64,000 bases of DNA from an uncultured Nitrospiraceae bacterium (GTDB lineage Bacteria; Nitrospirota; Thermodesulfovibrionia; Thermodesulfovibrionales; SM23-35): assembly GCA_963718855.1 (NCBI GenBank), contig CAVRAA010000002.1:50225-114224 (forward strand). Direction: 5' to 3'. The translations under genes were made by a program, and so were the position numbers. The stretch's first letter is position 1. Every line of letters starts with the position of its first letter. This document shows positions 41,385-58,190 of the stretch, piece after piece. The notes under the pieces are model-generated. The model was not told where the DNA came from. It saw only the letters and a list, made by a program, of their open reading frames with translations, and ran no database searches.

Positions 41385-42023
41385 GTGTTGTCTGCTGATT
41401 TATATGTTGAGAAGATAAACTTTCTCAGATATCTGAATCAGTCCGACTGCAGGGAATGCGGCTTCCCTTCGTGCAACGAATTTATCCTCGCGCTCCGGGC
41501 AGGAAGAGCGGAAACTCATGCCTGCTCTTTTCTCAGCCGGAATAAGGCGTATGCATTCGAGGCAATAGGGAAGATTCAGGAACTGTGGCCTGAAGTGCCT
41601 CTCCTCACACACCCGAGACCGGGCTTTACCGGCCTCATCGAACTCAACAATCCTGAACCATCCTCCCTGGTGCTCGTCACCGGGAATAACGAATACACCG
41701 GGGAAGTCATCATGACAGTCCTGGGGACGACCTTATGCCCGTTTTTTGTCATCTTTGCCGATACCGGCGGCAATACGGTTGATATGGCCATGATCTATCA
41801 GACTTTGACAGCGGAGATAATATGCGGCGCCCTCAATGAAACAGGCATCGGGGATAAAGTACAGGCGCAGGAACTTCTTATCCCAGGGCTCGCGGGGCCA
41901 CTGAAAGAAGACATCGAAAGACTGTCAGGGTGGAAGGTGAGGGTAGGGCCGGTATGCGCGGCTGAACTGCCGCTTTTCCTTTCCGAACTATGGATTCCGC
42001 CGGAAACGGTAAATGGGCAATGA
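41385..42023 (+). CDS. Fe-S protein: N-terminal 4Fe-4S domain + corrinoid Fe-S protein (AcsC/CdhE)-like C-terminal domain
   Basis: DCRECGFPSC...C; LVTGNN, DTGG, LLIPGLA, GWKVRVGP..AAELP. Confidence 0.7.
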   Translation: MLSADLYVEKINFLRYLNQSDCRECGFPSCNEFILALRAGRAETHACSFLSRNKAYAFEAIGKIQELWPEVPLLTHPRPGFTGLIELNNPEPSSLVLVTGNNEYTGEVIMTVLGTTLCPFFVIFADTGGNTVDMAMIYQTLTAEIICGALNETGIGDKVQAQELLIPGLAGPLKEDIERLSGWKVRVGPVCAAELPLFLSELWIPPETVNGQ

Positions 42024-43393: not shown

Positions 43394-44106
43394 ATGCTTC
43401 TTGGCGTAAATATTGATCATGTGGCCACGATACGGCAGGCGCGGTTGGGCGCAGATCCCGATCCTGTCATGGCCGCTACATTGGCGATACTCGGCGGAGC
43501 AGACGGGATCACCCTCCATTTGCGGGAGGACAGACGCCACATCCAGGACCGGGATCTCAGGCTTCTGAGAGAAATTGTCCCCTGTGAGCTTAACCTTGAA
43601 ATGGCTGCAACAAAGGAGATGATCGGCATTGCGCTGAAGACGAAGCCCGATCTTGTCACCCTTGTGCCTGAAAAAAGGCAGGAGCTTACGACAGAAGGCG
43701 GGCTTGATGTTGGTTCGCAGAAAAAAACAGTGAGAGAAGCGGTCAGAAAAATCCGTGACGCGGGAATTCCCGTGAGTCTTTTTATCAATCCCGACCGGGA
43801 TGATATAGAGATATCGAAGCAGACAGGCGCGGATATGGTGGAGATACATACCGGCATGTACGCGAATGCAAAAAAGAAAAGACAGGAAGAAGAACTCGTC
43901 CGCGTTATGAAGGCGGCAGAGCATGCGCTGAAGGTCGGGATTATGGTAAATGCAGGGCACGGGCTTAATTACTCAACGTATCAGGATGCGCTTCCATTCA
44001 GGGGCTTCGGGGGCTCTATATCGGACACAGTATTATTTCACGGGCAGTACTCACTGGGATGGAAAAGGCGGTAAGAGAGATGAAAGAATTGATAAAGAAT
44101 GCTTGA
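43394..44106 (+). CDS. pdxJ: pyridoxine 5'-phosphate synthase, frameshift near 43975
   Basis: [39 protein letters not shown]; IGHSIISRA in shifted frame. Confidence 0.93.
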
Positions 44107-44118
44107 AGGAAGATTAAA

Positions 44119-44579
44119 ATGGAAAAAAATATTTTGATTCTATGCTGCGGCTATCCCTGGGCAACTGATATGGCATTTGGCTATCATGTATTGAAAGCTT
44201 TGGAGAAGATGCACTTCCCGGAAATGTAGAAATCATGGAGGTCGGGGATTCAGCCTGTATGATTCCGGCATTCGTTGAAGGTAAGGACAAACTTGGTCGT
44301 TGTTGATATTTTCAGGGTCGATTGCTAAGCCTAGTGACCGATAGTCCGTCTGAAGCAAGCGGAGGTTCCCGGTTACTGTTAACAGCAAAACAGATATTGA
44401 TAAATTTCATCTTATGGAAATGCTTGAACAAATCAAAATCAGCGGCAAATGCCCTGAGGCTATTTTTATCGGTGTTGTGCCAAAGGACTCAGAGGACAAG
44501 CGGAGAAAAATTAACGCCTGTAATAAAAAAACAAATCCCCAAGGTTATAGATTTAATCATGCAAGAGATAAACCCATAG
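44119..44579 (+). CDS. divergent hydrogenase maturation protease-like protein, multiple frameshifts
   Basis: ILILCCGYPWATDMAFG..VL..L, NVEIMEVG, KLVVVD, H....ML, IFIGVVP, LTPVIKKQIPKVIDLI; HybD/HyaD-like order of motifs. Confidence 0.6.
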
Positions 44580-44616: not shown

Positions 44617-45782
44617 TTATTGAAGAGTCGGACCGGTTAGGGCATGATGGAATATAAATACTTTAATAAATTCCTTGCGGGTTACTTCTGATTTGACAAA
44701 CGTTGCTTGTTGTTGGATAACTGCCCGGGTTATGATCTCTCCATGGCAGGAAAGGTAACACTCCCCTGCCCGATTCCCCAAATCATTGAATTCAGGGCAC
44801 CGCTGCTTGAAGGACTGACTGGAGATACTGTTCAGATCGATAAGATGAGAATATTGCATACTGCCATGGACATTATGGCCGTACGACAGGAAGTTCCGGC
44901 AACGGAAACATGCAGATTATGAAACTGAAAACTCTCATTGCTCAGGATACTCGTTCTCGTGTGACAATTGTAACAGAGTTCATACTGAAAACCTTTCTGA
45001 ACCATCTACTCCGAAAAATTCTTCTTTAAAATATACTTATAAGTTGGAGCCATGTGGGCCCTCGGGCCCGAAAGGATCATCATTCCCGTGGCAATCAGTG
45101 CATTTGATAATGCTTGATACCGTTAATGGATACGATAAGACTTGGCACATTGACATTTCTGCCCGAAGCCAAGGATTGGATGATATGAAGGGCGTGAAAC
45201 ATCAAACATATTCCCCTTGTTTGATTGATTCCCAGGGAGATTTCCTATTTGCATGACACTTGAAACAAAGTTCATATTCGTCAATGATCTGTCTCTACCT
45301 GTTCCCCCTGAGCATTGTCTCCTTTGATGCCTAATGTTTTGTTGATTTTTAATACATAGTGATGATGGTGCAATCCATATAAGTTACTTCCATGGGCATT
45401 GATTCGTCTACCTGAGGATAGGTTTTTCGAACCCTCACTGCACATATGCGTATTATTTTTGATAGGAGTCAATATGGTTTTTCAAATTCTACTCTGCAGG
45501 TCTATCTAATTCACATCCTTTCCCAAATCGCCAGTCTGTTTTACTTTTGTATTTGCATACTATTACCATGACACCTGAAGCAAAAAGAATTTCTGTCCTG
45601 GGCAGCATAGGAGTATTAGGTTTCCCATGGCCTTTATGGCAACTTCCACAGCCTTTTGGAATTTTAGTTCCATCTCTATGTGCCCTTTTAGATGCCTGTG
45701 AGAAGACCAATGGCGGTATCAAGACAATACTTAATGATATCATCATTAGCGCTATGCATATACATGTAATTTTCTTGTTCAA
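44617..45782 (-). CDS. multiheme c-type cytochrome (~8 hemes), multiple frameshifts
   Basis: signal peptide; clean CGSCH, CFRCH, CFKCH, CTDCH, CYNCH; two indel-damaged motifs; terminal CYLSCH. Confidence 0.75.
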
Positions 45783-45810
45783 AGTAGTAGAGTTACCCCA
45801 TTTTAAAGGT

Positions 45811-46541
45811 TCAGTATAATCGTGTCTCCATATAGACAGGAAAATTATCATCATGGCACACTAAGCATACATCATCATAGGTTTCTTTTCGCCAAAAGGG
45901 TGGCGGAGGAACACCATTGACCGTTATTCCTCTTCCGCCGTGAGGATCATGGCAGGAGGTACACTGGACACCGTATCCGCCCTGCGTAGGATAAAGTTTC
46001 ACATAGGGGTCATCATCGGCCAAATAAGCTTCATGGGAAAATCAAGTGAGGGATCATTTCTCATGCTCGACCAAATTAGCATCAAAGATAATCGATATAG
46101 GGTGGCCACCCCCCAGATCTGTTCCCAAATATCCGTGATCGTCTACAGATAATATGTCAGGAAATGTTTCAATAGTTGCTGTTACTAATGCCCCGAGAGC
46201 GATCGTCCCATCGTGACAGCCCAGACAAAGTTTTGAATAACCATCAATGGGCGGAGCACTGCCCGGTGCATAGGGCTGCAGCGTATCGCTTTCATATGCA
46301 GTGTATGTGACTCCATTAGAGACTTGATGATTCCATAAAGGATAATCAGGCGATGCATTATGAGGGGTATGACAGAAAATACAAATCTGGCTTTCCTCGG
46401 ATAATACACCAAGTCATAGCGAAACGGGTTAGAAGCAGATAAATTATGCCTTGTGCTTGCAACTCCACCGTAAGCATTAAAACATAAAATAAAAAAACTT
46501 AAACAATATAATCCGATAATTAGTGGTTTTAAAATTTTCAA
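45811..46541 (-). CDS. OmcE-like tetraheme cytochrome c (candidate nanowire subunit), frameshifted
   Basis: rebuilt across frames: signal, STRHNLS, QICIFCHTPHNA, PLWN, SKLCLGCHDG, LGTDLGGGHPI, VQCTSCHDPH, PFWR, VCLVCH. Confidence 0.8.
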
Positions 46542-46656
46542 TAGTTTTTTTATACATAATTATAAATTACAAATTACAGGGACAAAAAAGCAAGTTTATT
46601 AGAAAGCACATAGCTTCATACCCAAATCCCTATACTAGAGTTATGACCTGCCTGAT

Positions 46657-46743
46657 TCATTGTGCGAGAACCAGAGAAGGAGTTCGAAGCAATCATTAAG
46701 CATCTGGAAAAGACTGGATTGCTTCGCTGCTGCTCGCAATGAC
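46657..46743. repeat. CGTC-type REP-like palindrome
   Basis: tcattg..gcgag...cgaagcaatc / gattgcttcg...ctcgcaatga. Confidence 0.6.
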
Positions 46744-46905
46744 AAATTTCCGTAAAGGGATTAGGTCTTTACTGAAGACTGTCTATATTAACTCAGGGTT
46801 TGTCATTATAGCGCTTGCCCGGTGGATCCATGATTCGACACGCTCATCATCGCATTTTTTTGTATCACATTCCTGTAGCCCTGAGTTTCTCGAAGGATTT
46901 TGCTA

Positions 46906-47964
46906 TTATGGCCTCTTAAGATATTGAAATACCTGAATCCTATTATTATAAGAATCAGCAATATAAATCCGGTCGTTACTGTCAATAAATATTCCCGCGG
47001 GGATAAAGAAGTCACCATTTCCGCTTCCGGAACTGCCGAACCATAGCAGTAATTTGCCATTCTTGTCGAATATCTGAACATTATCAAAATGTGCGTCAGT
47101 GATATATATATTGCCTTCTGAATCAACTGCCACGCCTTTGGGTTTAGAAAAATTTCCTGATCCGTCTCCAAGTTTACCGAACGTAGATATAAATTCGCCA
47201 TCTCTGTTGAAAATCTGGACTCTGAAATTCATTGAATCAAGAATATAAAGAAGATTGTCCTTTCCGATAAAGATATTTGTTGGGTAATTAAATTCTCCCT
47301 TAGCTGAACCATGTGTGCCGAATCTGAACAGGTACAGACCTGTAGATTGGGAAAATACAAACACCTGATGCCGATGAGTGTCAACTACATACATACGGTC
47401 TTCATCAATTGCTATGCCAGTTGGCCTTATAAATCCTTCAGGTGGAACCATGCTCCGCAGATATTTTCCCTCCTTATCAAATACAAAAACATTTTTCAGC
47501 ACAGAGTCCGACAGGAATATCTGACCATTTGCATGTATGGTAATTCCTATAGGAGACATGAGAGCCTCTCCGTTAATCTCATATATCCGGGAATATTTTT
47601 TCCTTTTTACATCAAAGATATGAATGCAAGCAAGTCCCGGATCCGTCACATAAATAATTTCAGAATCAGCGACTATACCATAAGGCCTCAACATTTGTTC
47701 GCCATGTTCTTCTCTGCCCAACACTGTATCTACTGCTTTCTTAAACCAGGATTTTTGAATGCCTAAATCATCTGGGCCCCTGATGGTTTTGATTAGTTGA
47801 ATTCTCGGATCATGTGGAGGCCACGATAGAATACCGTCGCCCGTCAGTGCATCGGAATCTTTGTTAAGGTAAGTATTTTTTACGCAGGCCGCAGACGGAA
47901 ATATAAGGCATAAAAAAATTATAAGTGGAAAAAAGTTACAAATCCTAATCGCGCGAGAAATCAT
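46906..47964 (-). CDS. NHL-repeat six-bladed beta-propeller lipoprotein
   Basis: SAAC lipobox, WPP, repeated F..P.GIA.D...IY..D..N.R.Q.F units. Confidence 0.9.
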   Translation of the reverse strand: MISRAIRICNFFPLIIFLCLIFPSAACVKNTYLNKDSDALTGDGILSWPPHDPRIQLIKTIRGPDDLGIQKSWFKKAVDTVLGREEHGEQMLRPYGIVADSEIIYVTDPGLACIHIFDVKRKKYSRIYEINGEALMSPIGITIHANGQIFLSDSVLKNVFVFDKEGKYLRSMVPPEGFIRPTGIAIDEDRMYVVDTHRHQVFVFSQSTGLYLFRFGTHGSAKGEFNYPTNIFIGKDNLLYILDSMNFRVQIFNRDGEFISTFGKLGDGSGNFSKPKGVAVDSEGNIYITDAHFDNVQIFDKNGKLLLWFGSSGSGNGDFFIPAGIFIDSNDRIYIADSYNNRIQVFQYLKRP

Positions 47965-49795
47965 ATTATTCTGCTGACTTTAAGCTCGATTCTTCTATCG
48001 AGTCTTTCCCTCTCTCACCAGTATCAAATTTTCTAATTCTGCCATCAAATATCACGAATACCCTGCCCTTCTGGTAACGGGTCTCGAGTTCAAAACTGCT
48101 CTCTTTCGTGTCCGAGTACCCCTCGAGTTCTTGCCATATTTCACGCCACAATGCAGAGAGTAATAAGGTTCTTTTAATGGGATAGTTCATTCTGCCTTCA
48201 TAGAAGTATCTTGATCTCTCCCTTGCTTTGGTTTCTCCCGTGTCGTATCCTGATTTCAGATTAACGGTTATGCCTTTTCTGAAAAAATACGCCAAATCTG
48301 CTCTCAACGTGAGGAGAGTTGTATCTTCTTCGAAGCGCTCGGTATTAGACAAAAAACCCGAGTCAAAAGAATCAAAGACACCGGTCCTCAAAGGTCGCTT
48401 TCCTTCAGTATTCGACTTATAATATTGACCTTCGACATTCCAGAATGATCTTCCGAAGGTTCTTCCGGGCAACTTTCCCCTGATTCCGAGTCTCATAATA
48501 TTCCCTGTGGTTGTGGACTCATATTTTAATAGGTTGCTTTCATCAAAAGAATCGTCACTCCCCTTTTCAAGATATTGATAATTTTCTTCAGACCTGAAGA
48601 ACACATAATTCAGATAAAGCGTGCCAATTCTGATTTTTGAGGTGGTCATGTTCAATTCAAAGCGATGTTCATTAGAATCGCCTCTTCTCTCATCTTCTTG
48701 TGCAAAGAATCTGTAATATGAAGAGAAATTGAACTGCTTCCAAAGCCATCCATAACTGAGACTGGAGCCCAATCCCTCAGTATGCCAGCTTTCATCATCT
48801 ACTTCATTGCTGCCGTATCTAAGGGATAGGGAGGCACTCAACCTATCCATCAATCGGTAGGACCATGAACCCCAGAGAGATTGACGAGTTGCTTTGATAT
48901 TTTTGTCTTCGATGTCCAGTTCCTTTGATCCCGTAAATGTTGTGTCCGATTTCAGGTAGTCGTAGCCGTAAAAATGGGTAAAGCGTTTTCCATAGCCGAA
49001 ATCAAGATTACTTGATAACCCTGAATATTTTGATTCATCACTTTTTACATAACTTAAATAATTGGAGAGAGAAATGCCATTTTTTAGAGTGGAAAAGGTA
49101 TTGAGACGGTAATCCTGTACAGAAAAATTGCCATCGGGACGTGAATAATCAGCTATATCAACAAAGCCCTGGTATCTCGTTCGCAATAAAGCCCAGAAAC
49201 CTCGCACATCAAGGGTGTACCTGTCGAGTGTAATTCTGTCCACTTCATCTCTAACACGCAATATGTCGTATTCGTAATGGTAGTACTCGAGTCGTATTGC
49301 AGGAAGGTTCCTCTTTTTGACTCTCATGCGAAATCCGTACAACTCAGAATTGGTATCAACGGTCTCACCCGTCCAGTCGACAGTATAATAGATCTTTCTT
49401 GCATAGACATCGAAAGAGACCGGTCGATATGGAAGGAATGTTGTCAATAAGTCATAACCCATGTCGCTTGACTCATTGCCGTAGCCACCCTTAGCTCTGA
49501 ATATTGTATCTTCATAATGGATAGTTGCATTAAAAATTGCAAGTCTTGGGTGGTAAATATATCCCTCGGCACCAAGTCTATAGTACTGTTGAAAGGTCCG
49601 GGTTTCGGCGTCCCTGTCTCCGGAGTCAAAACTTGATTTGACGTTATAGCTTCTAAAAGTTAACTCGATGAGACCATGAAATTGAAATCGATGAGGATAT
49701 TCGACTCTCATCTGAGCATCGGCGGCGCCAATAAAAGATATTGCCGCAGAAAAAGCAATCGCTAAAATTAATACGTTGACCCCTTTTCTCTTCAC
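47961..49795 (-). CDS. putative outer-membrane beta-barrel (porin-like) protein
   Basis: GGAGG then GTG 49795; signal peptide; Tyr/Phe/Ser-rich alternating strands over ~600 aa, GYIYHPRL motif; last codons frameshifted (IELKVSRII*). Confidence 0.75.
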
Positions 49796-49949
49796 GAAGA
49801 CGAGATCCTCCAAAACTTTTCACAATGCCCACATTTTATTATAATATATGCACTATTAAAATATTTTAAATTACGCAATGAATGAAAATGCTCTTTTCCA
49901 CGAGGCGAAAAAATGAAGGATATATGAATAGTTTCTTTGGGTACTTACA

Positions 49950-50992
49950 TTACTCTTTTAAATATTGAAAGACTTGAACTCTTTTGTTATAGGTATCAGA
50001 AACATATATTTTGTCATCCTTATCAATAAACATTCCTGAAGGCAGGGCAAACTCTCCCGCTTTTCTGCCCGCCAGCCCAACCCAGAGCAGTAATTTCCCC
50101 TGTTCATTAAATATCTGGAAATTATTGAACGCTGTATCAACAACATAGACATTTCCGTCTGAGTCTACACCTATCCCTGCCGGTCTTGAGAAATACCCGG
50201 AAGCATCACCCAATTTCCCGAATTTTTTTATAAAATTTCCGTCGGGGGTCAAAAATTTGAACCCTGAAATTAAAGGAATCAACAACGTACAACCGGCCGT
50301 TCCTGTCGAGAGCCAAATAACTGGGATAGTTAAACTCCCCATCTTCAGCGCCTCTTTTGCCGATAGTGAAAAGGTTTCGGCCATCATTATCAATACTTTT
50401 ACAACATGGTCTTGCGAATCAGCGACATAAAGCCGTTCTCTTTGCTCATCGAAGACCATTCCAGCCGGCCTTTTAAATTCAGAGGGACTGCCGATTGTCA
50501 TGAGGACGCTGTCTGAATTAGCATCGATGGCAAAGACCTTTCTTAGTCTGGCGTCGGATACATAAAGAACGCCCTTCTTATTGTTTATCGCAAGTCCAAT
50601 CGGACCACCAAGTCGGCCCGTACCCAAAAATCTCAATACATTTTTCTTGCGGTCGAAGACAAATACGATACGAATTTCAGACTCGGCAACGTAGATATTT
50701 CCGGATGCGTCGACAACTACTCCATTTGGTCTTCTTAATGCCTCAACTCTTTCTTTTCCGATAAGAAATTCCATAACCTGACCAGGCTTTCCAAAGTCAT
50801 ATTTATTTGACCATGTTTCAATAAACTTTATGCGTGCGGGAGCTGGAGGGGGTGGCCAAACGGAAGTTGTCTCTGATGACGCAGCAGGGGCAGAAGACAC
50901 TGATGGGTACCTGCGCAACTCGCCATCATTGTCGAAAAAAACAGAATTACGAATAAAAAAACAAAAGCAACAAGAGATATCGATCTGTGCAT
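49950..50992 (-). CDS. second NHL-repeat lipoprotein, frameshifted
   Basis: MASCAG lipobox, VWPPPP..ARI, NHL repeats, ends RVQVFQYL like 46906..47964. Confidence 0.85.
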
Positions 50993-51059
50993 GATTATTT
51001 CCTTTATCGACAATAATGTAACTGCTGAAATAGCTATAAAATAACTGTGCAAAAATTAA

Positions 51060-52031
51060 TCAATAAAATTTATGACATCTCGCGCAAATATTTCCTTGCG
51101 GAAAAAGTTTTGCAAAATCCGAACTATGAGGATTGTGGCATGTAACGCAATTCATATCTCTGCCAGGATTATCAGGGTCAGGCACCTCCAAAGTTTTTGT
51201 GGGGGCAAAAGGATCGGTAATCTTCTTGGTTCCCGGGAATGCAGGATCTTTAACACCTTGAAGCGGATGGATTTTTTTCTTTCCCAGGGATCGATACAAT
51301 GTGACGCCCGTCGGATTTATTCGCGTGACAGCTTGTACAGAGTTCGAAGAGAGGCTGTACAAGCATCGCCTTATCGTTGCTCACATGCGGAGTATGACAT
51401 AAGGTGCAGCCGCCGGGCATCGAGACTACTGCATGAACAGTCTTCTTTGTGAACTTTGCCTTCTCATGGCATGCATAGCATGCATCCGGCATCTCGTTGC
51501 TGAGGAGTTTACTGCGCATTTGATGCATGCGGAGCATGGCAGCCGGTGCACATGCCGATGGTAGCGTGGCCATATTTCCCCTTGAATCTGTTTTCATCAT
51601 GGCAATTATAACAGAGGCCGGGCACATCACCCAAGAGAATCTTGCTGTAATTTGACTGATGGGGATCATGGCATCCCGTACACATTCCGCTGGTTATGGG
51701 GGTATGCACTGACTTGCCCTTAAATTTTGATTCGTCATGGCAGGTGTAACAGAGTCCGGGCATCGGTTGTGTCAGTTTGATGCTTCCTTTCTGGCCGGGA
51801 TGTGTCTTCCCCTCAACCGCCACATGGCAGGAGGAACAACCCAAGTGCGATAGCGGCATGAACACTCTTTGCGCGCTCCTTCATTTTCACGTGACAAGTC
51901 AGACATTGGCTGTCATCAGCGGAAAACGCCGGGTCTGCGAGAACAGAAAAAACGATGAAAGTCGTTGAGAGCAAGATGGTAAACAGTCTGAGTTTGGCAG
52001 TAAGCATCAATTCGTTTCGTCTATCCTTCAT
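51060..52031 (-). CDS. multiheme cytochrome c (11 CXXCH, doubled-CXXCH type), frameshifted
   Basis: signal; CLTCH, CSSCH, CYTCH, CTGCH, CYNCH, CTGCH, CYACH, CTLCH, CTSCH, CVTCH, CARCH. Confidence 0.85.
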
Positions 52032-52255
52032 TAAGCTTTTATTTAGTTTAAATATGTTCTTTCTTCCGTGTCAAGAACTATTGTCGGATAAAAATGAGAC
52101 GGAGTACCGAATTACCACCTGGCGGCATCGAGCGACCCCTCTTAAATAGGAGGGAACTTTTAATTCCCCCTCTTGACTAAGAAGGGGTGACTCAAAGGTC
52201 AGGGACAGGTGAGGTATAAAACTGATAATAATCCTTTGTGAGTATGCGGATTATC

Positions 52256-52294
52256 AAAAAAAAGCCCGGGAGGTTTTAATCCTCCCGGGCTTTT
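52256..52294 (-). terminator. rho-independent terminator
   Basis: gcccgggagg stem with U-tract downstream of the dodecaheme pair. Confidence 0.85.
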
Positions 52295-52315
52295 CATCCT
52301 TAGCTATACTGAGGG

Positions 52316-53214
52316 TTATTTCCCTTTTGCCGGCAGATCGTGTACATCGATGTGACACTGCAGGCAGTTCGGGAACTTCTTGAGCACGACTTCACCGTGC
52401 GGCTGGCCGTGGCATTCCTGACACTGAGGAACATATTTGTGTTTGGAATGATGGCATTTCACGCAGGCTACCTGACCGTGCTTGCTTACGGTTGACTTGA
52501 TTTTCTGCAATACCTGCGTATGGCAGCCACCGCAGACGTCGTTCTTCACTGTTTCCCCGTAACTAATCATGAGGGGCTTATGCACAGGATGGCACACCAG
52601 GCAGTCTTTTACCGTCTGGTCCGCTGAATGTGGTTTGTGGCATTCCATGCATGATGGTATGTAGCCGTGCTTGTCGTGATGGCACGAACCGCACGCAACC
52701 AGTGTGTGTTTGCTCGGGTTCTGCTGGAGTTCTGTGCTGACTGTCGCATGACAGTCGCCGCAGGCCTTTGCGAGCTCAGCGCTTGCCGTTATCTGTTTCT
52801 TCGGCGCATGGGGCTCAGCGTGGCACTGGGCACAGACGGGAAATTTCTGTCCGTGGAACAGGCCGTGACATTCCTGGCACTTCGGCATGATCTGGTCCCA
52901 GTTTTGTTTCACGGGGCTGTAGGCATGATACTTCGTATGGCATTTTACGCACTCGATCTGATGCTTGCCCCCCTCGTTTTTAATCAGGTTATATACGGAG
53001 GAGTGACAGCGTCCGCACTCATTGGGTGACATCGGAGTGATCTCTCCTGAGTAGAGGGAAGATGTCTTCACTTCTGCTTTCGTTCTTGCGCCGGTGCTGC
53101 CTGCTGTGTGGTCTGGGCTGTGACCGTTTCCGTTATTGCGCCTGTGGCAAATGCAGCGACGATCAGCAGTAGGAACAGGCCGAGCACAAAGGTCTTTCTT
53201 TTTCTGAAATCCAT
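52316..53214 (-). CDS. dodecaheme cytochrome c, frameshift after signal peptide
   Basis: MDFRKRKTFVLGLFLLLIVAAFA signal; 12 CXXCH in three 4-heme modules. Confidence 0.9.
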
Positions 53215-54062
53215 TATTTACCAACCTCCTTTCCTAAACTGTGTGCACTTAAGTGACACATATTACATTGCGGGAACTGTTTCAGCATGCCTGCGGGATG
53301 AGGCGCGCCGTGGCATGACTCACATGCGGGCACATATTTATGTTTTTCTTTGTGGCAGAAGACACATGCCAGAGCAGAGTGTTTTGTGTTCGATGACGTA
53401 AGACTGCCGGAGACGTCTGCATGACAGGCCGCGCATTGGCTGTTCGGCATATCAGGAGCGATAGAAATCGTAAGGGGCTGGTGGGCCGGATGGCAGACCA
53501 TGCAGTCCTTGTCCGTCTGCTCAGCAGAATGAGGCTGGTGGCACTTCATACACGGGGGAACATCCCTGTGTGCCTTGTGGCAAGTGGTACAGAACAGCTT
53601 CGAATGGAGCGTCGGGGTGTCCTTCAGTTCCTGTCCCTGCTTTGGATGGCAGGAAAGGCACGGGGCTGTGAGATTGACTGCCAGCTTCATATCGAGCGGC
53701 GCGTGCGGGTCGGTATGGCATGTGTTGCATCCGCCGATCTCGTAGTGCGGCTTGCCCGCGTGACACTCGCTGCAGAGCGGAATAATCTTGTCCTTGCTCA
53801 CCATCGGGGGATGTCCTTTATGGCAGCCCATGCAGGAAATGGCGGTCTTATGCTTGCTCCCCTTGCTCTCCACCGTGCCTGCCACCGCGGTATGACATTT
53901 GCCGCAGTCGCTGTTTGCAAGCTGTGCCTGGTCCGCAAAGCCCTCCTGCACGATGAAATGGTTCGGTAATAAGACAGATACGAAAAACCCTGTTACAGCG
54001 AGGAAAAGCAATGAACACATGATCTTCCCCTTTTTGTTCTTCTCCATGAGGCGCTTACTCAT
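53214..54062 (-). CDS. dodecaheme cytochrome c (paralog of the downstream gene)
   Basis: N-terminal hydrophobic segment; 12 CXXCH with the same spacing; TAATG coupling to the next gene. Confidence 0.92.
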   Translation of the reverse strand: MSKRLMEKNKKGKIMCSLLFLAVTGFFVSVLLPNHFIVQEGFADQAQLANSDCGKCHTAVAGTVESKGSKHKTAISCMGCHKGHPPMVSKDKIIPLCSECHAGKPHYEIGGCNTCHTDPHAPLDMKLAVNLTAPCLSCHPKQGQELKDTPTLHSKLFCTTCHKAHRDVPPCMKCHQPHSAEQTDKDCMVCHPAHQPLTISIAPDMPNSQCAACHADVSGSLTSSNTKHSALACVFCHKEKHKYVPACESCHGAPHPAGMLKQFPQCNMCHLSAHSLGKEVGK

Positions 54063-54302: not shown

Positions 54303-55331
54303 CTAATACCAGAGAACCGAGCCGTCTTTCGCCTTGATCGGAACGCGTCTGAGGGGGAGTTGCTTTTCCCATAACGATCTGTTTTCTTTATACCAGAGAA
54401 TGGTCCTGCCGAGGCCTTCTTCAAAGGACACTTCGGCCTGGAATCCCAATAGTGTTTTTGCCTTTTCACATGAAGCGATATGCTTCTGGACCTGGCCGAA
54501 ACGATCGGGGATGAAAGAAAGACGCTCTTTGCCGAGATTGAAGGCTTTCGTCACCTTCTCAGCAATCTGAAGGACGTTCAGACTCTGTCCCGTGCCGATA
54601 TTGAAGACCTCTCCCCTGACGCTCTCAAACGGAGCGTGGATGGCGAGATCCACCGCTCTGGAGGTGTCTTCCGCATGGACCCAGTCCCTCGCAGCTGAGC
54701 CGTCACCGTGAACAGTAAGCGGTTCACCGAGAATGCAGCTCGTAATGAAACGCGGGATGACCTTTTCGAGATGCTGCCTCGGGCCGTAGTTATTGAACGG
54801 CCTGATGATCACCGCCGGGATTTCGTGGGCGAGGACATACGAAGACACGAGCCTGTCGGCGCCCGCCTTCGCCGCGGCGTACGGGCTTGTCGGGTTCAGC
54901 GGATGGTCTTCATCCATAGGCTCATAGGCTGCCGTGCCGTATACTTCCGACGTCGAGATGTGGATGAAGCGTTCGATCCTGTCGGAATATTTCCATACCG
55001 CGTTTACAACGGATTGCGTGCCGAGCACGTCGGTCACAAAAAATATCCTGTGAGAGTAGAGAGAGCGCGCCACATGTGTCTCTGCCGCGAAATGCACAAC
55101 GATATCGGATTTTCCGACAAGGTCGCTCACAAGGTCAAGGTTATTGACGTCCCCGTACCAGAACTCAAACCGGTCGGAGTTCCGTACCTCCGGCGGAATA
55201 TTTTCGATATCACCCGCATAGGTGAGCTGATCGAGGACAAGAATTTTGTAGTCAGGGTATTTTTTAAAGATGTATTCGACGAAATTGCTGCCGATAAACC
55301 CCGCCCCGCCTGTGATGAAGATTGTTTTCAT
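54303..55331 (-). CDS. dTDP-glucose 4,6-dehydratase-like NAD-dependent dehydratase
   Basis: TGGAGFIGSN, LTYAG, HFAAETHV, STSEVYG, SPYAAAK, NNYGP. Confidence 0.88.
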   Translation of the reverse strand: MKTIFITGGAGFIGSNFVEYIFKKYPDYKILVLDQLTYAGDIENIPPEVRNSDRFEFWYGDVNNLDLVSDLVGKSDIVVHFAAETHVARSLYSHRIFFVTDVLGTQSVVNAVWKYSDRIERFIHISTSEVYGTAAYEPMDEDHPLNPTSPYAAAKAGADRLVSSYVLAHEIPAVIIRPFNNYGPRQHLEKVIPRFITSCILGEPLTVHGDGSAARDWVHAEDTSRAVDLAIHAPFESVRGEVFNIGTGQSLNVLQIAEKVTKAFNLGKERLSFIPDRFGQVQKHIASCEKAKTLLGFQAEVSFEEGLGRTILWYKENRSLWEKQLPLRRVPIKAKDGSVLWY

Positions 55332-55410
55332 GGATGCATTCTCCCTTAGTAGATTATTACGTACCGTCGCTAATGACTTTCGAGCACCTGCGCGTATTCG
55401 TAATAGAGTG

Positions 55411-55531
55411 AATTTCCCCTCACCCCTCTTAGCAAGAGGGGTAAATGCATCGGTAGTGGCATAAGGTTAGTCTGGATCTCATGATCTTATGTTCCCCTCT
55501 TTAGCGTCAGAGGCGGAGCTGCGGCGAAGTT
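55411..55531. repeat. CCCCTCT-N-AGAGGGG hairpin repeat pair
   Basis: ttcccctcacccctcttagcaagagggg and gttcccctcttagcgtcagagg; same family as the DUF559 termini. Confidence 0.55.
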
Positions 55532-56680
55532 ATCAGTATTCTGATTCGATTTACCCTTTAACCCCTCCTTCAACACCTTCACCACATACCTGACCTCTCT
55601 CTCTTTCAGCGAGGGATACAAAGGCAGCGACAGCGTCCGTCTGCCGATTTCTTCCGCTACCGGAAAGTCTCCTTCTTTATATCCGAAATTTTTTCTGTAG
55701 TATCTCAGGAGATGGATCGGCCGGTAGTTTACCGCAACGCCGATGTCGTGGGCCTGAAGCGACCTGAGCAGGCTGTCCCTCTCTGCAGGCGGCACGAGCA
55801 CCGTAAACAGATGCCTGCCGTGTTTCACCTTCGGGAGGGTCTTCAACAGTGTTATCCCGTTAACGGTCCTCAATTCCTCTTCGTAGAGCTTCCAGATCCT
55901 TTCTCTCTTCCTCCAGAGCGCTTCAATGCGTTCGAGCTGACCGATCAGCAGCGCTCCCTGAATATTATCCATGTTATATTTCCATCCAAGGACCGGCATG
56001 TCCCAGTGCCGGTACTGTTTTGTGTACCGGTCCGCAGCGCCTCTGTCGATGCCGTGCAGGCGCAGCATTTTCAGGGAATCCGCCAGTTTCTTTTTGCCGG
56101 TGCATACCGCTCCGCCTTCGCCTGATGTGATATTCTTTGTCGCATAAAAGCTGAAGCAGACCGCGTCAGCAGCCTCGCCGACCCTTATCCCGTCACGCGA
56201 CGCCTCTATCGCATGCGCGGCGTCCTCGATAATTTTCAGGTGATATTTTGCCGCCATCGACCTGATTTTTTTCATATCGCACATCTGGCCGTAGAGGTGG
56301 ACGGGAATGATTGCCTTTGTTTTTTTCGTGACCGATGCCTCGATGAGGTCCGCGTTGATATTCCCTGTTTCCTCTTCGACATCAACGAACACGGGTTTTG
56401 CTCCGGCATGGAGGATGGCATTTGCCGTCGCACAGAAGCTCATCGGCGTGGTAATGACTTCGTCGCCGGGCCCTATGCCGAGGGCGATGAGACTCAGATG
56501 GAGGGCCGCGGTGCAGCTCGTAAGGCCGACGGTATGGTTCAGCCCGGTGTACCGGGAGAACTTTTTTTCGAACTCTTCGACCTCCTTCCCCGTCGTGAGG
56601 AAGATCGACCTCAGGACACGGTCCACCCGCGCCCTGTCCTCCCTGTCGATGCTGTGGCGGAAGAACTCTATTTTTTTCAC
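55487..56680 (-). CDS. DegT/DnrJ/EryC1/StrS PLP-dependent sugar aminotransferase
   Basis: SCTAALH, PVHLYG, IIEDAAHA, SFYATKNITSGEGG, LSLPLYP. Confidence 0.93.
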   Translation of the reverse strand: MKKIEFFRHSIDREDRARVDRVLRSIFLTTGKEVEEFEKKFSRYTGLNHTVGLTSCTAALHLSLIALGIGPGDEVITTPMSFCATANAILHAGAKPVFVDVEEETGNINADLIEASVTKKTKAIIPVHLYGQMCDMKKIRSMAAKYHLKIIEDAAHAIEASRDGIRVGEAADAVCFSFYATKNITSGEGGAVCTGKKKLADSLKMLRLHGIDRGAADRYTKQYRHWDMPVLGWKYNMDNIQGALLIGQLERIEALWRKRERIWKLYEEELRTVNGITLLKTLPKVKHGRHLFTVLVPPAERDSLLRSLQAHDIGVAVNYRPIHLLRYYRKNFGYKEGDFPVAEEIGRRTLSLPLYPSLKEREVRYVVKVLKEGLKGKSNQNTDNFAAAPPLTLKRGT

Positions 56681-56769
56681 GTGGAATATTATAAAATCTT
56701 TCCAGAGAAAAAGGCGATGGGAGATTTTGTGGATATCAGTCGACGGTTCGAATGCATTTCGATTCGATA

Positions 56770-57217
56770 ATTCCCCCTTAACAAAGGGGGATTAAGGGGG
56801 TTGTGTATCCGAAAATCCATTTTACAATCCAGAGTTGAAACTCATACGCGAAAGAGCTTCGAAAGAAGGGAGTCGCTGTCCGAGGTCTTGCTTCTGGAAC
56901 CAATTAAAAAGGATAAACAAATGAAGGGCTATCAGTTTATGAGACAGAAACCCATAGGTGAATATATCGCTCGATTTTTATTGCGAGTAAGCTGAGAACT
57001 GGTAATAGAAATCGATGGAGAAAGCCATGAGGGTAGATTCCAATATGATGATCAAAAAGACAACAGTTTCTGGAATCCATTGGGTTGACAGTGCTGAGAT
57101 TTAACTGATGCAGATGTGAAAAGGGACATGACCAATGTTTTAATGGCGGATTAGAGGGTTGGATTGAAAATCAGCGTGTAAACAACCGCCTTCGTCCCCC
57201 TTAGTCTAAGGAGGAAT
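56770..57217 (+). mobile_element. DUF559 endonuclease cassette A (gene heavily frameshifted) between ~35-bp inverted termini
   Basis: ELRK...SEVLL...GYQFMRQKPIGEYI.DFYC...IEIDGESH...GLTVLRF across frames; 56770-56804 is an inverted match of 57182-57217. Confidence 0.6.
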
Positions 57218-57227
57218 AACAGAGGAA

Positions 57228-58190
57228 ATGAATATGACTGACTCGACCCCTGAATTTTCGGTCGTCATCCCGATCTGCAACGAACAGGAGAACATCCCTG
57301 AACTCTGCACGAGGCTGACGGGCGTCATGGAGATCGCTCTGTGCAGTCGTGAATCTGCCCGGACGACCGATACGAAATCATCATCGTTGACGACGGCAGC
57401 AGGGACGCCTCATGGGAGCGTATAAGGGAATATCATGATCGTGACAGCAGGGTGAAGGGGATCAGCTTTTCGAGGAATTTCGGCCACCACATTGCAATCA
57501 CCGCCGGCATTGACAGTGCCAGGGGGAATACCGTCATTCTGATGGACGGTGACCTCCAGGACCCGCCTGAAGAGATCCCGGTGCTCTTTGAGAAATTCAG
57601 GGAAGGCTACGACATCGTCTACGGGATACGCCGGCACCGTGAAGACCCCTTGCTGAAAAAGATGTCCTCATCCGTGTTCTGGTGGATACTGAGAAAGTTC
57701 TCCGGAGTCGATATCCCGCAGGGACAGACGATGCTGCGGATTCTGAGCAGAAGGCTCATCGAGAGCATGAAAGGAATGCGGGAGCACGCGCGGTTTATCC
57801 ACGGCATGATGGCATGGGCCGGGTTCAGGACCGCGACAGTAACAGTCAGGCACGAGCCGAGGACAAAGGGAAAAAGTAAATACAATGTCCCCAAAATGTT
57901 CAGGCTCGCGTTTCATGCAGTAACCTCTTTTTCGATCAGTGCCGCTCAGACTCGCCACGTATCTCGGCTTCCTGAGCGCTTTGGCCAGTTTTCTTATCGG
58001 GATGTATTTCGTCTACAAGCGGTTTGTTTACGGGATCCCGGTGCTCGGGTACGCCTCGATCATCGTCTCGATCTTTTTCGTCGGCGGCATACAGCTGCTC
58101 GTCCTCGGGATATTCGGGGAGTATCTGGGAAGGACCTATCAGGAAGTCCAGAGAAGGCCGCTCTATATTATTCAGGAATCATTGTTGTAG
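57228..58190 (+). CDS. GT2 polyprenol-phosphate glycosyltransferase (GtrB/ArnC-like), frameshifted
   Basis: SVVIPICNE, IIVDDGSRD, SRNFGH, MDGDLQDPP, GKSKY, two TMs, GEYLGR...RPLYII. Confidence 0.88.

Follow-up and report, generated by a model that had tools for sequence, protein, structure and literature searches.

Positions 44617-54062 of the 64,000-nucleotide stretch analysed here (the window; all coordinates are positions within it), which belongs to contig CAVRAA010000002.1 of an uncultured Nitrospiraceae bacterium from sediment (Thermodesulfovibrionales, an order of sulfate reducers), hold eight co-oriented genes on the minus strand: c12A, c12B, c11, NHL1, barrel, NHL2, c4 and c7, in the order of transcription (Table 1). 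This locus likely represents the omcE-type cluster for extracellular electron transfer, known from Geobacter and Desulfuromonas, in the form that it takes in Thermodesulfovibrionales (Nitrospirota). The core of the locus has the published parts list of omcE clusters and the system is for this reason already known in kind.

When CXXCH haem motifs were counted in all six frames, 44 of the 48 motifs of the window fell at the locus, all on one strand, and among the 369 motifs of the whole 2.72-Mb genome the locus is the largest cluster. As assembled, c12A and c12B have 12 motifs each, c11 has 11, c4 has 4 and c7 has 5 (plus one CX3CH). Intact orthologues would sum to 47 haem sites (12+12+11+4+8), since c7 has seven CXXCH and a C-terminal CX3CH in all 15 orthologues. 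The initial annotation of this DNA had listed the same genes in the same order, on the same strand and with the same end coordinates, in agreement with our open reading frame (ORF) lists and orthologue comparison. Its figure of about 47 haem motifs is right for intact orthologues, but not for the assembled window with its 44 CXXCH and one CX3CH.

Table 1. The eight genes of the locus in the order of transcription, followed by a repeat within the locus and by other genes with frame breaks
Feature	Position	Strand	Description
c12A	53214-54062	-	282-amino-acid dodecahaem c3/c7-type cytochrome; N-terminal hydrophobic signal/anchor; intact
c12B	52316-53217	-	dodecahaem paralogue of c12A; signal-peptide piece 53068-53217 in other frame
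c11	51060-52031	-	undecahaem MtrA/DmsE-like cytochrome; four frames as assembled
NHL1	49950-50992	-	NHL-repeat beta-propeller lipoprotein; one blade (~50244-50420) and signal peptide out of frame
barrel	47966-49813	-	615-amino-acid outer-membrane protein with signal peptide; 28-strand plug-less beta-barrel model; intact
NHL2	46906-47964	-	352-amino-acid NHL-repeat beta-propeller lipoprotein; overlaps stop codon of barrel; intact
c4	45811-46541	-	OmcE-like tetrahaem cytochrome, putative filament subunit; three frame pieces
c7	44617-45782	-	octahaem-type cytochrome; at least five frame pieces; two motifs broken
intergenic repeat	46690-46745		hairpin arms CGAAGCAATC / GATTGCTTCG; within the 365-nucleotide gap 46542-46905 between NHL2 and c4
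pdxJ	43394-44094		split over two or three frames
hycI-type protease	44119-44573		split over two or three frames
GT2 glycosyltransferase	57231-58190		split over two or three frames
dsrA	C13:462292-463549 (other contig of the same genome)		split over two or three frames

A profile of the c4 family, built from 10 orthologues and two pieces of the window gene, matches 7tfs_A with an E-value of 3.1e-35 (residues 12-232 of 232) and 9yuq_N with an E-value of 3.8e-22, and the window piece 46054-46413 alone matches 7tfs_A with an E-value of 8.3e-18. 7TFS is the OmcE filament of G. sulfurreducens and 9YUQ represents the OmcE bundles of D. soudanensis WTL (Petersen et al., mBio 2026, PMC13712944). All 10 c4 orthologues, and the window pieces combined, have four CXXCH, as expected of this class of proteins of about 210-270 amino acids. 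In the HMMER alignment, not only the four CXXCH but also the histidines of TKH, TPH, GGH and DPH of c4 align with OmcE. The haems of OmcE have bis-histidine ligation, with one histidine supplied across subunits. Four such further histidines are conserved among OmcE homologues, as stated in a passage of PMC13712944. Judged by sequence, the homology of c4 to the OmcE subunits of the solved filaments extends over the full length, and the term OmcE-like of the initial annotation agrees with the matches to 7tfs_A and 9yuq_N. The locus has only a weak OmcS-like match (6ef8_A, E-value 0.33, for a fragment).

The omcE cluster of the Desulfuromonadia was described by Petersen et al. (PMC13712944), and passages of that paper give a parts list that recurs here: two multihaem cytochromes (in the window c11 and c7), two beta-propeller lipoproteins, an OmcE homologue and a large beta-barrel, with c4 being homologous over its full length to both solved subunits. 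Sugar-modifying genes beside the window cluster recall the glycosylation genes that are known beside freshwater omcE clusters. OmcE homologues with such a gene context are stated to occur in five phyla, Nitrospirota among them. There are also differences: the window cluster belongs to another phylum and family, nine of the related loci have two extra 12-haem genes upstream, c11, one of the 'two multihaem cytochromes', resembles MtrA, and the cluster has a fixed place beside hypD/hypE/pdxJ/hycI, unlike the Desulfuromonadia omcE cluster. It also has three sugar genes, in comparison to 15-70 in the Desulfuromonadia clusters as given in PMC13712944.

All related loci are from metagenome-assembled genomes (MAGs) of Thermodesulfovibrionales/Nitrospirota. 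The core order (a 9- or 11-haem cytochrome, NHL, barrel, NHL, c4, c7) is present in 14 of the 18 distinct loci that were read, and 9 of these 14 have both 12-haem genes upstream. The four exceptions are a locus that is cut by the start of its contig and has an inserted gene (L019), a short contig (L021), a frame-broken MAG (L031) and a degenerate extra copy (L020). The cluster lies beside hypD/hypE/pdxJ/hycI in at least 11 loci, as it does in the window. With the single barrel protein as query, orthologues were found in 10 of the 24 other genomes of the family, each from a different genus, but in none of the 16 genomes from other families of the order. With the barrel profile (E<=1e-10), more distant barrels with lengths of 560-720 amino acids were detected in 61 of 301 genomes of Nitrospirota. 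Ten distant loci from other Nitrospirota families were read: the NHL gene adjoins the barrel in all ten, an OmcE-like gene is present in nine, and MtrA-like and c7-like cytochromes are frequent. The co-conservation that the initial annotation had proposed to look for is thus found at two depths, in the core order of the closer loci and in the company that the distant barrels keep. In the genome of the window itself, all five families searched are found only at this locus. Near-identical pieces of the locus are present in sediment and freshwater-sediment metagenomes, for example one of 708 nucleotides with a single differing letter (run X4).

Several loci depart from this pattern in their own ways. 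In two genomes of the family the barrel cluster is present two or three times (G007 with L016 and L017; G014 with L011, L020 and C32); the additional copies are degenerate or have no 12-haem genes. One distant Nitrospirota cluster has a SurA-like peptidyl-prolyl isomerase (PPIase) adjoining the barrel (L038 9084-10019) and another has an STT3/AglB-type oligosaccharyltransferase inside the cluster (L035 6392-8539); neither is found in the family of the window. Some distant clusters encode OmcE-like proteins with five CXXCH, and one encodes a protein of 905 amino acids and 11 haems, part of which is OmcE-like (together L034 1257-2129, L037 5857-6657, L039 2099-2887 and L041 3263-5980). The forms with five haems agree with the 'possible new OmcE nanowire family' mentioned in section 9 of PMC13712944.

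The barrel protein has no Pfam family (E<=0.1) and no NCBIfam family (E<=0.01). Its AlphaFold2 model, based on an alignment of 42 homologues, has 28 strands (mean pLDDT 86.9, pTM 0.70), preceded by a signal helix, and a plug domain is absent. Foldseek searches of the PDB returned nothing but large barrels of a generic kind, namely TonB-dependent receptors, ushers and MtrB, and the top TMq among the matches listed was 0.40, to MtrB (6r2q_B). When the family profile was compared with the PDB sequences, the sole match was the KdgM porin, with a marginal E-value of 0.0075. The confident model, the absence of a sequence relation to MtrB and the generic nature of the Foldseek matches together indicate that the protein is, as far as model and sequence go, a beta-barrel but not MtrB; we have therefore rejected membership in MtrB/PioB. 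The initial annotation, which had postulated a beta-barrel that was not recognisably MtrB and had named barrel prediction as a check, was correct on both counts. The barrel is present in a single copy in its own genome. Among ten representative clusters of remote barrels one is named, as Nitrospirae, and a profile built from the remote matches found eight proteins, one of them named Candidatus Polarisedimenticolaceae. In a search for a link to the barrels of Desulfuromonadia, only E. coli gave a match among 14 control genomes.

The 11-haem cytochrome encoded together with this barrel has a relative in a known conduit. The c11 orthologue of locus L011 matches 6r2q_A (E-value 1.1e-16), which we take to be MtrA and which is part of an entry with the title 'Structure of the Mtr complex', and it also matches the DmsE family TIGR03508 (E-value 3.9e-32, 111.7 bits). 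Apart from the form with 11 haem motifs, some relatives have a 9-haem form that lacks one two-haem repeat. By these matches c11 is related to MtrA, a likeness that had escaped the initial annotation, and the barrel may therefore itself house an electron-carrying cytochrome.

The same data could be explained by a porin-cytochrome conduit and no filament: c11 would thread the barrel in the way that MtrA threads MtrB, and c4, c7 and c12B would be monomeric proteins of the surface or periplasm. This would agree with the matches of c11 to the MtrA chain and to the DmsE family, with the plug-less model of 28 strands and with MtrB having the top TM among the Foldseek matches listed. It would also agree with the lipobox cysteine of c12B in the relatives read (e.g. 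L013, L014, L015, L016, L025, L030), as surface cytochromes of known conduits are lipoproteins. Moreover, a passage of PMC13712944 states that OmcE-like tetrahaem sequences are widespread and that not all of them need form nanowires. Nevertheless, we regard a conduit without a filament as unlikely: c4 is homologous over its full length to two proteins whose solved structures are filaments, the eight haem ligand positions all being aligned, and it is found in the gene context by which nanowire candidates are picked in the passages of PMC13712944.

Both NHL proteins match the Pfam family NHL (PF01436) far above the gathering cut-off of 20 bits, NHL2 with an E-value of 1.3e-29 (101.1 bits) and NHL1 with 6.2e-29 (99.0 bits); NHL2 also matches the six-bladed propeller DUF5128 (8e-27, Pfam). 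The two are paralogues with about 40% identity. Identity to the respective orthologues is 56-62% for NHL1 and 52-55% for NHL2. The N-terminus of NHL2 ends with '...FPSAAC', the signal of NHL1 with its 'MASC' is in the frame piece 50828-51055, and the second-frame piece of NHL1 (50206-50418) is a typical NHL blade. Lipoprotein signal peptides or lipobox cysteines are present in the N-termini of the NHL proteins of essentially all relatives. The Pfam matches confirm the NHL repeats that the initial annotation had named.

The joint occurrence of barrel, NHL and OmcE-like genes across Nitrospirota would also be expected if the barrel and the two propellers were purely a secretion or anchoring platform for the filament, with electrons reaching the filament in another way. 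In print, the barrel of omcE clusters is taken as a putative secretion pore or anchor, and for omcE/omcS clusters the barrel and propellers together have been offered as a hypothetical filament secretion pore or anchor (passages of PMC13712944). We find a role as platform only rather doubtful, as an MtrA-like cytochrome is fixed in the core (14 of 18 loci), which suggests that haems pass the membrane at the barrel. The platform role and the conduit role are not mutually exclusive.

In Pfam, c12A matches Cytochrom_c3_2 (1.9e-13) and Cytochrome_C7 (7.9e-9). It is 60-65% identical to its orthologues in L011 and L013, and c12B is 64% identical to the c12B of L013. The signal region of c12B in the window (53068-53217) has no cysteine, owing to a true change to a soluble form or to another local error near 53081-85. 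For c7, no relative of solved structure was found. The c7 family is large and strongly conserved, and those members that are named among the 120 matches listed are Nitrospirota or Nitrospiraceae. The AlphaFold2 model of c7 (alignment of 61 rows) had a mean pLDDT of 46.6, too poor for a fold search. A better c7 model from the Atlas has look-alike clusters of about 365-370 amino acids, commonest in Thermodesulfobacteriota and Acidobacteriota, which we regard as a lead only. That c7 could be a paralogue of OmcE was rejected: hhalign covered only 38 columns of the paired CXXCH motif, with a probability of 67%.

For the omcE-type cluster of the window, we propose the following mechanism. The 12-haem proteins, one with a signal/anchor and the other a lipoprotein in relatives, would carry electrons over the periplasm. 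The MtrA-like c11, the base of the OmcE-like polymer, or both, would sit in the barrel and let electrons pass through the outer membrane, and c4 would polymerise outside the cell into a haem wire. The two propeller lipoproteins could hold or assemble the complex and c7 could be an adaptor or a surface cytochrome. Electrons might flow either outwards to, or inwards from, minerals or partner cells. As the genome carries dsrA, the host probably reduces sulfate or sulfite and inward flow is therefore possible as well as outward flow. A more specific version can be formulated, in which the 11-haem MtrA-like rod threads the non-MtrB barrel of 28 strands and feeds the base of an OmcE-type filament, NHL lipoproteins clamp the junction, and inward flow from minerals or partner cells feeds sulfate or sulfite reduction in dsr-carrying freshwater-sediment Nitrospirota; with all these parts taken together, we would give it a small chance of being correct.

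Several observations weigh against the omcE-type interpretation and its mechanism. Neither the ORF lists nor the Pfam searches of the flanks revealed an inner-membrane quinol-oxidising component or quinol dehydrogenase within the cluster; for this reason the word 'complete', which the initial annotation had used for the conduit, was too strong. The barrel is not MtrB by sequence (NCBIfam; profile against PDB) and c11, in its L011 orthologue, stays below the curated cut-off of the DmsE/MtrA family TIGR03508 (111.7 versus 192.2 bits). Finally, the barrel, the propellers, c11 and c7 were likened to those of the Desulfuromonadia by description, and the comparison by sequence concerns c4 only.

Five of the eight genes are frame-broken in the assembly (c12B, c11, NHL1, c4 and c7), which the initial annotation did not mention, and three are intact (barrel, NHL2 and c12A). 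The 11 CXXCH of c11 are distributed over frames 2/0/1/2, in c4 there is one N-terminal shift and, in addition, two shifts about 40 nucleotides apart that compensate each other, and the c7 family profile matches five separate frame pieces. We are fairly confident that these breaks are single-base assembly errors, by far the most likely explanation in our view, because flanking genes and dsrA are broken too (Table 1) and because contigs from other metagenomes differ by single bases at several of the breaks. These comparison contigs are from runs X1, X3 and X4 of three DNA studies and are 90-99% alike to the window. Among the indel rows listed, which are 29 short of the full set, there are single-base differences to the window at 51286 and 51515 (X1, X3, X4), at 51840 (X1) and at 50244 (X1, X3), and the contigs of X1 and X3 have four extra letters at 53081-53085. 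Dropping the single bases at 51286, 51515 and 51840 results in one c11 frame of 335 amino acids with 11 CXXCH, and adding the four letters at 53081-53085 joins the signal piece and the 12-haem part of c12B in one frame of 301 amino acids. Most of the differing sites are short homopolymers. If the breaks are assembly errors, the genes of the living organism are probably unbroken. The broken stretch is 11-20 kb from the end of contig C2 and there seems to be about one indel per kb.

Alternatively, the locus could truly be decaying in this strain, with the breaks being real mutations and the system being non-functional here. Some data speak for decay and against assembly errors: the breaks are uneven, with at least 14 in c7, c4, NHL1, c11 and c12B and none in barrel, NHL2 and c12A; and contigs of X4 cover three of the sites without a change, namely 50244 (0 of depth 2.3), 51840 (0 of 4.18) and 53081-85 (0 of 4.23). 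Genome-wide ORF statistics are moreover near normal (coverage 0.85-0.92, mean ORF length 268-330 amino acids), and the error rate would therefore need a local rise. Decay is nonetheless quite improbable, as pdxJ, hycI, GT2 and dsrA are split as well, pairs of compensating shifts 40-180 nucleotides apart (c4, NHL1) resemble consensus errors, the frame-restoring state is found at five places in contigs of the three DNA studies, and the MAGs L031 and L025 of relatives are fragmented in the same manner.

Compared with other systems than the Desulfuromonadia cluster, the locus shares some parts and lacks others. Like MtrCAB of Shewanella (6R2Q), it has an MtrA-like multihaem cytochrome and a large plug-less barrel. 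The MtrB barrel has 26 strands, in comparison to 28 in the model of the window barrel. Unlike MtrCAB, the locus has a barrel without sequence relation to MtrB or PioB and no MtrC-type decahaem cytochrome, its c11 has 11 (or 9) haems and remains under the family cut-off, and NHL lipoproteins and an OmcE homologue are present. In G. sulfurreducens, the osc (omcS-companion) operon is alike in encoding a filament cytochrome together with channel-like and beta-propeller-like helpers, a likeness by description (Shen et al. 2025, as cited in PMC13712944, ref. 72, and in passages of PMC13194489). None of the eight window genes is an OmcS-like hexahaem cytochrome or a PPIase chaperone, although a SurA-like PPIase does occur in the distant Nitrospirota cluster L038. 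Desulfovibrio ferrophilus IS5 has clusters of outer-membrane cytochromes with NHL beta-propellers, linked to electron uptake from solids (passages of Deng et al. 2018, PMC5815863); these too are likened by description, and the passages name neither a beta-barrel gene nor an OmcE homologue.

We found no paper that describes the eight-gene arrangement in Thermodesulfovibrionales, in a search that did not cover supplements, and those of PMC13712944 may name Nitrospirota genomes. PMC12954529 and PMC9473688 contain nothing on helper genes of filament cytochromes. OmcE-like cytochromes are mentioned in a figure legend of the preprint 10.64898/2026.05.27.727921. PMC13647500 deals with Cyc2, which is a different system.

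The core genes (44617-51000), above all the barrel, have a G+C content that is 4-14 points below that of the flanking hypE and pdxJ. This dip (0.39-0.43 versus 0.51 in the flanks) is shared by all five relatives checked (L012, L013, L014, L015, L022) and is therefore a property of the gene family and not a sign of transfer; with the conserved position beside the hyp genes, this led us to reject a recent horizontally acquired island. The sugar genes beside c12A (54303-58190) encode a GDP-mannose-dehydratase-like epimerase, a DegT aminotransferase and a GT2 transferase. The same three genes adjoin c12A in three relatives too (L013 1899-5091, L022 1-3634, L025 956-4484), and a fourth has the epimerase only (L018 15169-16197). 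Between hypD and hypE, at 41385-42023, is the gene of a 212-amino-acid protein that has an Fe-S motif and is CdhD-like in its C-terminal part, which is kept at the same place in relatives (about 206-210 amino acids).

The repeat between NHL2 and c4 (Table 1) is present in a great many metagenome contigs; it has a summed depth of about 1100 in eight contigs of run X1, and in all four runs there are loose contig ends at 46709-46746, on both sides of the repeat. It is probably a widespread small repeat and, from its position, may separate two transcription units. Searches of the window for other signals gave little: the only Rfam match was a sub-threshold rnk_leader (30.3 versus 50 bits), no tRNA was found, and neither promoter-like sites (23 versus 21.5 in shuffles) nor terminator-like sites (11 versus 8.7) were in excess. 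Parts of c7, NHL2, barrel, c11 and c12B are covered by contigs of the RNA library X19 (likeness 90-99%); contigs of this kind are no evidence of transcription in this strain. A prediction of the complex of barrel and c11 (the intact pair of L012, with family alignments) had a score of 0.00 and was made without controls; it counts neither way.

As earlier work has already described this kind of system and reported it from Nitrospirota (passages of PMC13712944), the gain from this locus is incremental. The same passages state the electron feeding of nanowires and their mounting in the outer membrane as an open question. Cytochrome nanowires have been studied almost only in Geobacter and its relatives, and this Thermodesulfovibrionales family offers a compact and strongly conserved set, with an MtrA-like cytochrome, a barrel of 28 strands, two propeller lipoproteins and an OmcE homologue being adjacent, which is well suited for structural modelling and heterologous expression directed at this question. 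Should the 11-haem rod indeed thread the barrel and feed the base of the filament, this would be the first definition of the route by which a cytochrome nanowire is connected across the outer membrane. For the organisms themselves, the locus points to an ability of dsr-carrying sediment Nitrospirota to give electrons to, or take them from, solids or partner cells.

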